Source: Octopus vulgaris (taxonomy: Eukaryota). Taken from it: a DNA stretch of 64,000 nt. Positions 12,501 to 44,776 of this stretch are shown here, piece by piece. The stretch is taken from contig OX597842.1 of assembly GCA_951406725.2 (NCBI GenBank), positions 18,786,001 to 18,850,000 on the forward strand, given 5' to 3'. The position numbers and the translations under genes were made by a program. Within the stretch, counting starts at the first letter, position 1, and each line of letters begins with the position of its first letter. The notes beneath the pieces are model-generated. The model ran no database searches, was not told the DNA's origin, and saw nothing but the letters and a program-made list of their open reading frames with translations.

Positions 12501-15500
12501 AACATTTAAGTTTAATTTGTCAAAATATTTTCGTCGCTAAAATCCGCGACCTGTTCACTGACAAAAATCCGTGCTGCATCTAAATATGTTTATATATATT
12601 TTATGATATGCTTAATAATTCACAAAAAATATTGAAAAGGATAACGAAAATGAAAAAGAAAATTAAAGGAATATATAATTATACACACATTGAAAGATAC
12701 AAATATATACACAAGCACACACTGATAAACATAACACCAAACATTGATGTAAACCAGAAACACTCATCTTCTCACATACTGTCGCACACATCTGTAGAAA
12801 GAATTCGAGTTAGAGAAGGACAAAGAGAGATGGGAAGAAAAAATATGTTCAGAAATATGGAGTATAAATAGTATCAGCAATATCGATCCGACTTACAAGG
12901 TGTTTACTCTGGTAACGTTTACGAAGGAATTTTGTTCGATTTTCGAGATTTCATTTCTGGCCAAATCTCTGTGAGATACAAGAGAATTGTTTAGAATTAG
13001 CAAAGAACAGATTTGTAATAAAATATGAATTATAATATCTAATAAATATCTAATAATATAATAAATATCTAATAATAATATAATATCTCATAAATTAGAT
13101 GCTGAAATAGAAGGAAAAGAATCAGAAGAGAAAGTACCAGTTGAGAGCGTAGGGATGATAATACTGATGATGATGATGATGATGATGATGATGGTGGGGG
13201 GGATGGTGGTGATGGTGGTAGTAGCGATGGTGGTGGTGTTGGTGGTGGTGATGGTGGTAGTTGCGATGGTGGTGATGGTGGTGGTGGTACTGGTGGTGGT
13301 GGTGGTAGTGGTGGTGGTGGTATTAGTAATGATGGTGATTATGTGGTTGTGTGGGCTTTGACATTGCTGATAATGTTGATCATAGTGGGATTGCTGCCAA
13401 CGATGGTGATAACATCACTGTTGATAATGATAATGATGATTATAAGGATGATGTTAACATAAGTAATTATTAGTATAGATAAGGATTAATAATCATAATC
13501 CTGAAAAGAAAATGGTAATGGTTATGATGAAGATGATCCTGGTGATTATGATGATAATCATAATTGCATAGATCCTAATAGAAATATTTGTGAGTATATG
13601 TGTATATATGTGTATATATGTGTCTGACTGCATGCGTTTGTGTTCGTCTATCAGGTCATCCCATAAGTTCTGTCCGATTTTACATCTTTTAAAATTGAAT
13701 GGAATTTAATAATAAATTAGAATGTCTAATGGAATTAACATTATTTTTATACATTTGTGTACATTTAAACTAATTGAATATTACTTTACAGAATAATAGA
13801 AATAAAATTTCGTTAATTAAAATCCTTTCTAACATTGAAGTATCCAACGAGTATTTAAGACACACAATGCTTTATGAGTACAAAAAGGGAAATTCTGCAG
13901 CCGAAGCGACTCGAAACATACACTCAATTTATGGGAAAGAATGCTTGAATGAAAGAACTTGGTTTGCAAAATTCAGAAGTGGAGATTTAAGCCTTGAAGA
14001 TGAAGAAAGTCTCCTATATGAAATGTGTTAGTGTTGTAAGATGTATGTATTTAGCATTTTCAAAGACAGTCTCTAAATATAATTCTTTTAAAATGTTTCA
14101 GTATAAAGGCGTTGATAAAGAATATCCACAATGCTATTTCATAAAGCAAGATAGTTAAATTTATTCAGTAGTGTAATGAGGCATAGTTTTTCGTATAAAA
14201 TGAGTCCAAATGCAAAATCGCATATGTGTGTGCATGTGTATATATCTTTCAATGTGTGTATAATTATATATTCCTTTAATTTTCTTTTTCATTTTCGTTA
14301 TCCTTTTCCGTCTTTTTTTGTGAATTATTAAGCATATCATAAACCACCTTTATTACTCTTCCAAATCGGTTGGCTATTTTCAGTCAGAATGATCATGGGA
14401 CTGTCACATTGAGTTGACTACTCTCTCTCTCTCTCTTTCTCTCTCTCTCTCTCTCTCTCTCTCTCTTTATATATATATATATATATATGTACACACACAC
14501 ACACACACACACACATATATATATATATATATATATATATATATATATATATGATGTATTCATGGACTTTCACATACAGATGTATAAAGTAATCTCCCTT
14601 ATCTCGTTCATCTTCTTGATTTTCTATTTCTTACAAATCAAGTTTTACTTGTCTTCACGTCTTTTTCTCTTTATTTTTTCTCCTCTAACTTTTGTATTTA
14701 TTTCCTTATTTGTCGCCATAATCCTCATGTTTATAGTCATGGACACAACCACCACCATCATCGTCAACATCATCATCAACTTCATCATTATTATCTCACC
14801 ATCATCATCAGCATCAATGCCACCGACGCTATAAACATCATCCACCTCGTCATTATACCCATCTTCATCAATATCACTATCTTCGTTATCAATCACCATC
14901 ATCATCGTTGTCATTCATCATTGTCCTCATCTTCTTCATCAACTTCTTTCATTTCCATTTGTTTATTTGTTCTCTTCCTGCATCGTATTGATTAAATATA
15001 ATGTTTAATATAGTATTTCTTAGCAATTACCGTTTATTTTACAGAGATCTATCCCACAATGCAATTTCAAGTTTGGAACAAAATGCCTTCGAAACACTGA
15101 CCAAATTAAAAACATTGTAAGTTGGATATGTCTTGCTGATGCTACATTTTGACTGTTCATTTCCCTCTTTATTTGAGGTTTCTAGACACGTCTCTAGCTG
15201 ATATTCACTCTAAATATATGCGAGACTCTGTGTGAATCTTAGTGTTTGTTGTGTATATCTGATGCACATTGTGAAGAATAACAAAGATTAAAAATTGCTG
15301 CCAACAACTAACCCCAGAATGTAAGAATATCATCGCTACGGGTTTAGACCTTAAAATTACTTTTAGAAACCTCATACAATCGTAAATGTTTTCTTTTGTA
15401 ACTTTCAGGAAAATGGGTGTTTTTTAATGGTAGTTTATTTTCTAGTATTGCCTTTCAAACTGCATAGATTATAAAGACATATTTGGGAAAAGATATTTTC

Positions 15501-44776: not shown

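Follow-up and report, generated by a model that had tools for sequence, protein, structure and literature searches.

Several families of leucine-rich repeat (LRR) receptors invite comparison with the octopus locus analysed here, and what follows on them refers to the accessible portions of the papers cited. Group 3 of the octopus-specific adhesion GPCR expansion (Ritschard 2019, PMC6408891) combines a GPS with an adhesion 7TM domain, includes LRRs in 5 of 22 sequences and lies in tandem clusters. Its members are expressed in nerve cord, suckers, skin and gills, and positive selection was found at branch level, with no selected sites in the portion of the paper that is accessible. Brown algal ROCO and LRR-kinase genes are proposed to be immune receptors (PMC3341825; PMC11378527). 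In the variable lymphocyte receptors (VLRs) of jawless vertebrates, variability is placed around the core beta-sheet (PMC3900441).

The window, that is, the whole stretch of 64,000 nucleotides that we analysed, corresponds to G000:C29:18786001-18850000 in the 2.8 Gb genome of Octopus vulgaris. A scan for 72-bp exons bounded by AG and GT found 19 plus-strand exons with open frames at 15045..44776 (Table 1). Each one encodes a single 24-residue LRR, and the introns split the central Leu codon of LxxLxLxxN. The exons belong to seven types (5 A, 3 B, 1 C, 2 D, 3 E, 3 F and 2 G) in the order A A A B C D E F G A B E F D E F G A B. Exon 1 and all 19 LRR exons form one stop-free frame of 519 residues, with no indel or stop in the 18 LRR exons that have a same-type partner (the single C1 is omitted from this count). 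The LRRNT of exon 1 matches Pfam with E 2e-4, under the curated cut-off, and is preceded by a hydrophobic leader, as judged by eye. This exon has 48 family matches in the genome, of 59 scored; a homologue search with exon 1 as query found none.

Table 1. Features of the window (positions counted from its first nucleotide)
Feature	Position	Strand	Evidence
First coding exon: predicted signal peptide and LRRNT cap, ATG at 9402	9382..9592	+	sequence, translation, Pfam
Truncated C-type LRR exon, cut by repeated element, reads into stop	12097..12118	+	
Inverted block with intact G-type exon (12968-12897) opposing gene direction	12600..14224	-	
LRR exon A1	15045..15116	+	
LRR exon A2, V at x5, N at x2	17093..17164	+	
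LRR exon A3	18939..19010	+	
LRR exon B1	20305..20376	+	B1 type seen in DNA run X2
LRR exon C1, sole complete C copy	21445..21516	+	
LRR exon D1	23123..23194	+	D>E joint in run X19
LRR exon E1, T at x7	24304..24375	+	E>F joint in 3/4 runs
LRR exon F1	25324..25395	+	joined to first letters of G exon in 3/4 runs
LRR exon G1	27316..27387	+	
LRR exon A4, V at x5	28391..28462	+	
LRR exon B2, H at x8, V at x2, S at x3	29710..29781	+	H seen in run X15
LRR exon E2, L at x5, K>N at x10	31622..31693	+	both changes in X15 contig
LRR exon F2, N at x8, V at x3	33205..33276	+	
LRR exon D2	35320..35391	+	
LRR exon E3	36478..36549	+	
LRR exon F3	37944..38015	+	
LRR exon G2	42141..42212	+	
LRR exon A5	43237..43308	+	
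LRR exon B3, Y at x7	44705..44776	+	
Second truncated C-type exon, cut point as in the 12097 copy, N9 replaced by D	45748..45769	+	
Assembly gap	45844..45943	.	

A third G exon, in inverted orientation, and two truncated copies of C had been missed in an earlier, sequence-only reading of the window; the third G adds no new variable site. Both truncated C copies have N in place of H at x5. They lie in blocks that are 97.7% identical at opposite ends of the array (11839-12192 and 45489-45843), and either of them, if spliced in, would cut the protein short after 13 residues, to give an LRR-only product. The third G exon is inverted in place with its flanks; about 120 bp of the G-A intron, found at 12600-12720 and again from 14226, bound the inversion and point in opposite directions, resembling a staggered break. 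Upstream of the gene, a 141-bp satellite (64 copies, 95% identity) occupies window positions 1-9019, stops ~360 bp before exon 1 and continues beyond the window. On the minus strand, a 1039-codon open frame with motifs of a LINE-type reverse transcriptase occupies window positions ~61950-64000 together with L011 and ends inside the window, adjoining the second assembly gap.

The window likely holds the N-terminal LRR part of an adhesion GPCR gene. The hydrophobic N-terminus, the LRRNT and the LRR exons in one frame are features of such an ectodomain. Beyond the window and before the next exon 1, plus-strand exons at C29:18856452-18879862 encode protein P0006, which contains a secretin/adhesion 7TM domain (7tm_2, PF00002, E 1.5e-41). 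This 7TM half begins about 26 kb (25.7 kb) past the last LRR exon, across two assembly gaps, the second of them at G000:C29:18851246. No match to GAIN/GPS or other middle exons was found in the 25.7 kb between the last LRR and the first TM exon, which contain both gaps, and none of the 65 Cys-rich exon matches sits in the window locus; the same search for middle exons on a control stretch of the neighbouring gene recovers them. The two gaps likely hide the LRRCT, Cys-rich and GAIN/GPS exons. As the middle exons are absent and two gaps intervene, the GPCR assignment is indirect: three exon-1/7TM pairs alternate in order in this cluster, from which we infer that the LRR and 7TM parts share one transcript. 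The protein of the next paralogue (P0001, labelled Octopus vulgaris adhesion GPCR G6-like) contains LRR, GPS and 7tm_2. In the neighbouring paralogue, the last large 7TM exon occurs a second time as a partial copy with a frameshift (G000:C29:18972988-18973259 and 18980598). All the 7TM relatives found are from Octopus (11 of 11), and the Pfam family of the ROC-COR GTPase was detected in 0 of 5 family proteins scanned. Placed by its domains, the gene family is likely group 3 of Ritschard 2019.

Comparison of the copies within each exon type gave 17 variable sites, 13 non-synonymous and 4 synonymous, exactly as previously counted. Ten of the 13 replacements fall on the five concave positions x2, x3, x5, x7 and x8, again reproducing the earlier list: D/V and K/N in A; S/Y, Y/H, M/V and Y/S in B, the type that contributes four of the ten; R/L and T/S in E; D/N and E/V in F. 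The remaining three are K/E at position 24 of A, and K/N at x10 and E/K at position 17 of E. The copies of D and G differ only synonymously, and the K>N change in E2 does create an N-I-S sequon in the sequence. The binomial test that had been suggested for the clustering gives P = 2e-5 against 5/24. We dropped it as the main test because framework positions are counted in its null. Weighting by non-synonymous sites gives P = 4e-5, and dropping the seven framework positions, so that only other exposed positions are in the null, gives P = 1e-3. The A copies are mosaics and hence the sites of the window are not fully independent.

Sequencing runs provided evidence on splicing and on the variants. 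The RNA status of runs X14-X19 is a guess, with which their GT..AG joints, fitting spliced RNA, agree. Among four RNA-guessed runs, the D>E joint appears in one (X19), the E>F joint in three, from three studies, and the joint of F with the start of G in three; run X14 gave no exon joint. Record 19 of run X16 is E1 with 0 other letters. At the F>G joint, the RNA letters match the inverted G copy and G2, not G1. No skipping of an LRR exon of the window gene was seen in the RNA-guessed contigs. One contig of run X15 (organism B) runs from an A exon through a B exon into the start of E2, in the order of the window, and carries the H of B2 and the L and N of E2; for these three variants, the proposal that they might be sequencing errors does not hold. 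At its A end, this contig has three further replacements in 29 nt (L1, x2 and x3). The V and S of B2 are absent from both runs that cover those bases (X2 and X15). DNA run X2 has the B1 type only at the B2 position, run X4 covers B2 solely by short, divergent pieces, and run X19 gave no match to this exon.

The duplicated introns served as a clock, with 157 of 3776 aligned intron columns variable and expectations scaled per exon type. On this scale, concave replacements number 10 against 2.78 expected (3.6x, P 6e-4), which answers the proposed comparison of exon with flanking-intron divergence in favour of selection. Synonymous sites agree with the introns (4 vs 3.69 expected, 1.1x), other exposed replacements number 3 vs 6.04 expected, and framework replacements 0 vs 3.77 (P 0.023). 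A CpG-aware version expects 2.80 concave replacements and leaves P unchanged. When one exon type at a time is left out, P ranges from 0.0003 to 0.044, the weakest value being that without type B (2.4x, P 0.044), and without the two unconfirmed sites of B2 it is 0.008. The 13:4 ratio, described before as near neutral, stands as a number, but that description hides one class of sites that is accelerated 3.6x, one slowed to 0.5x and one that is invariant. The clustering of exon-copy differences on the concave face is thus real, and stronger than had been claimed. With 10 events, the evidence is modest in this gene alone; it is strong in parts of the family.

For the family, we took 30-51 kb after exon 1 in 21 paralogues and obtained 183 open 72-bp exon calls, those of the window included. 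Repeat number varies from 3 to 18+ among paralogues. Four exon sets were chosen by motif after inspection and cover 92 of the 183 exons: 60 exons from 11 C31 genes, 9 from 2 genes, 8 terminal repeats from 8 genes and 15 exons from 3 C29 genes. Respectively, the tree-free ratio of concave pN to pS is 2.5, 6.4, 5.8 and 3.5, and that of other exposed sites is 0.35, 0.59, 0.33 and 1.12. The codon-model analysis that had been called for, carried out with fixed site classes, gave concave omega values of 2.9, 8.7, 9.3 and 6.1 (each P ~2e-4 or less against 1), tree-based estimates that recombination may inflate. In concave codons, positions 1+2 show differences at 0.38-0.49, against 0.03-0.12 in aligned intron flanks. 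The 60-exon set contains 53 distinct concave five-residue sets; x5, x7, x8 and x3 take 10 residues each, and 9 of 23 positions are invariant, in part because the scan and the motif impose it. Twelve 5' motifs pair with more than one 3' end, and in only 4 of the 60 exons do the two flanks agree on the nearest copy. This mixing of flanks and motifs is consistent with exchange between copies; linkage also decays with distance, partly within codons, so that the decay is not by itself proof of recombination.

According to the earlier reading, its claim would fall if clustering disappeared with more copies. Clustering sharpened in the four paralogue sets but is absent from the upstream paralogue, whose recent duplicates differ at 4 concave, 10 other, 5 framework and 4 synonymous sites. 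When seven C29 genes, among them the upstream paralogue, are taken together, the counts are 15 concave, 18 other, 5 framework and 6 synonymous sites, six of the 15 concave sites coming from one cluster that merges two exon types. Diversifying selection on the concave face is therefore supported by the intron-calibrated excess together with four paralogous exon sets, in a gene-dependent manner; ligand binding by this face is a prediction from LRR structure.

Other features of the family were recorded. An x10 sequon, like that made by K>N in E2, is found in 21 of the 60 exons of the C31 set and is toggled mainly by S/A at position 12 (paralogues L051-L070 and L091-L110). Family matches number 65 of 66 scored for the Cys-rich exon and 72 of 104 scored for the 7TM exon, the latter including distant genes. 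In G000:C31:4981624-5025713, the Cys-rich exon (5018913) lies only ~7 kb before exon 1 of the next gene. Five plus-strand C31 genes have no downstream plus-strand 7TM match, and these may be secreted members.

In Octopus bimaculoides, protein P0013 contains a single B-C-D-E-F-A unit, after which come two more repeats and the LRRCT. Thus, taking orthology from sequence likeness only, the window gene has likely multiplied and scrambled this unit, whose order in the window is rearranged relative to P0013. Between species, compared at the protein level only, positional pairing gives differences at 12/30 concave vs 20/66 other positions (P 0.24, not significant), and in the neighbouring gene, with one of 12 exons left out for low identity, 22/55 vs 34/121 (P 0.08, not significant). 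A best-match pairing (14/30 vs 19/66, P 0.07) was discarded, as it set E1 against the wrong O. bimaculoides repeat. Two groups of NCBI isoforms from O. sinensis (13, P0020 and P0048-P0059; 6, P0018 and P0041-P0045) differ by whole 24-residue repeats, which may reflect exon skipping or a read-mapping artefact; some look chimeric.

The AlphaFold model of P0013 has a mean pLDDT of 71.5, with LRR blocks mostly at 81-98, and its best fold matches are NgR, LGR4, LINGO1 and LRRTM2. Mapping on this relative, as had been proposed for the variants, places x3-L-x5 on the repeated beta-strand; x2, x7 and x8 belong to the concave face too, by established LRR knowledge rather than by the model. After the LRRCT, the family-wide Cys-rich domain (~305-395 in P0013) has no Pfam match and low model confidence, and it occurs in tandem repeats in P0061 and P0063. 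Its C-terminal CCxxxxCN motif is reminiscent of Ly6/uPAR folds.

Given the exon array, its splicing, the pattern of variable sites and their excess over intron divergence, all of them observed, we consider it rather probable that the array is the LRR 5' part of a likely adhesion GPCR, in which selection speeds change at five binding-face residues per repeat while the framework stays fixed. Change between exon copies at the predicted ligand-contact residues is likely the outcome of selection for novel binding specificities. Since all exons are alike in length and phase, repeats could be gained, lost and recombined in frame through unequal crossing-over and gene conversion in the germline. The unit B-C-D-E-F-(G)-A, single in O. 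bimaculoides, would have been copied about four times with losses, and new copies with an altered concave residue would have been favoured by selection. The LRR horseshoe would bind an extracellular ligand and signal via GAIN/GPS and 7TM. As to the driver, we consider variable non-self ligands (microbes or parasites on the surfaces of skin, suckers and gills) the most probable one, at about even odds. More tentatively, it is tempting to propose a germline VLR-like repertoire built on G-protein signalling, in which ~50-70 LRR adhesion-GPCR genes, with exons shuffled, recombined and combinatorially spliced, would give individual- and cell-specific faces for pathogens or for discrimination of self from non-self, the window showing this process at its start.

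The same selection could act on self ligands, the faces forming a code for neural wiring or self-recognition in arm nerve cord, suckers and skin that keeps paralogues distinct; we regard this as rather unlikely, even if the nearest solved folds include several neural LRR receptors. Self ligands that stay fixed usually keep the face conserved, while here very young copies have already diverged on the face and paralogues differ widely in repeat number. Expression, in the accessible portion of PMC6408891, points both ways: axial nerve cord, suckers and skin express group 3, for which a role complementary to that of protocadherins has been proposed, and the expression of octopus-specific groups in O. 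bimaculoides peaks in the axial nerve cord, which fits a neural role equally, but in C. minor group 3 is rich in gills.

Relaxed constraint combined with small numbers is improbable. It would hold that the x positions are the most tolerant ones and that homogenisation of introns by conversion fakes the excess. The few events in the window, four of them in one exon type, the upstream paralogue without clustering and the non-significant cross-species tests are in line with it. So is the 60-exon set, where pS (0.20) exceeds the flank distance (0.06), and therefore introns can understate exon age. However, relaxation cannot exceed the neutral rate, synonymous sites in the window match the intron rate, and the paralogue ratios, which are based on synonymous sites of the exons themselves and need no tree, are still 2.5-6.4.

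A hot spot of mutation or conversion at exon edges would let junction position, not function, set the pattern. All five concave codons lie within 13 nt of a splice junction, and the mosaic A copies vary at donor +4/+5. Yet the 10-nt intron bins adjoining the junctions differ at only 0.045 and 0.007 in the 60-exon set; introns beside junctions thus barely vary, and this explanation is largely refuted, a very small chance being left to it. The codons of L6, N9 and L1, beside hypervariable ones, keep their residue, a biased observation as the scan required such residues, and the CpG correction changes nothing. An assembly artefact, with base errors or two haplotypes joined in tandem, is equally improbable: two gaps, an inversion, missing middle exons, D1/D2 introns that differ by 1% only and the unconfirmed V and S of B2 might suggest it, but 3-9% of intron columns vary among the five A and the three B, E and F copies, the 18 partnered exons are intact, the X15 contig repeats the A>B>E2 order and three of the variants, and no near-identical E-F region was found elsewhere in the 40 candidates that were scored out of 680.

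Selection on the concave face of a likely adhesion GPCR is thus the reading that we prefer. How cephalopods recognise variable ligands is little understood, and a GPCR family whose LRR face is hypervariable and modular by exon offers concrete candidates with testable residues in a large, uncharacterised receptor family. Among the best-ranked literature matches, with subscription papers mostly outside the search, no publication was found that describes such a face. Fragmented gene models named 'slit-like' or 'decorin-like' may have hidden the pattern from the earlier study of the family. A family of this kind would add one more independent case of this design to those of VLRs and brown-algal ROCOs.

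Genes of the LGR4 and Nogo-receptor types are single-copy with fixed ligands, and LGRs differ in carrying a rhodopsin-type 7TM, that of the window family being 7tm_2. Their ectodomains (PDB 4qxf, 5o0k) have the same solenoid fold with a concave beta-sheet as the P0013 model. Group 3 shares GPS and 7TM, LRRs and tandem clusters with the window family, whereas the one-LRR-per-exon structure and the concave hypervariability found here are not mentioned in the accessible portion of PMC6408891. A term search of the accessible portion of a 2026 review did not return 'GPCR'. VLRs of lamprey and hagfish, as far as the accessible portions of PMC3900441 and PMC13428168 go, resemble the window family in the LRRNT, the 24-residue repeats, the variable concave surface, the terminal repeat and the LRRCT, but they are assembled somatically from an incomplete gene, while here ordinary germline exons are spliced in genomic order. 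We therefore rejected the window gene as a VLR, its repeats being exons with splice sites and not donor cassettes. Brown algal ROCO/LRR-kinase genes (Zambounis 2012; Teng 2024), in the portions accessible, likewise have one LRR per exon, exon shuffling and positive selection on the concave face. Their output is a ROC-COR GTPase or a kinase; here, in an animal, there is a signal peptide and, in relatives, GPS and 7TM. In summary, the window gene works like the LRR exons of brown-algal ROCOs and looks like a VLR face, while it lacks a defining feature of each.
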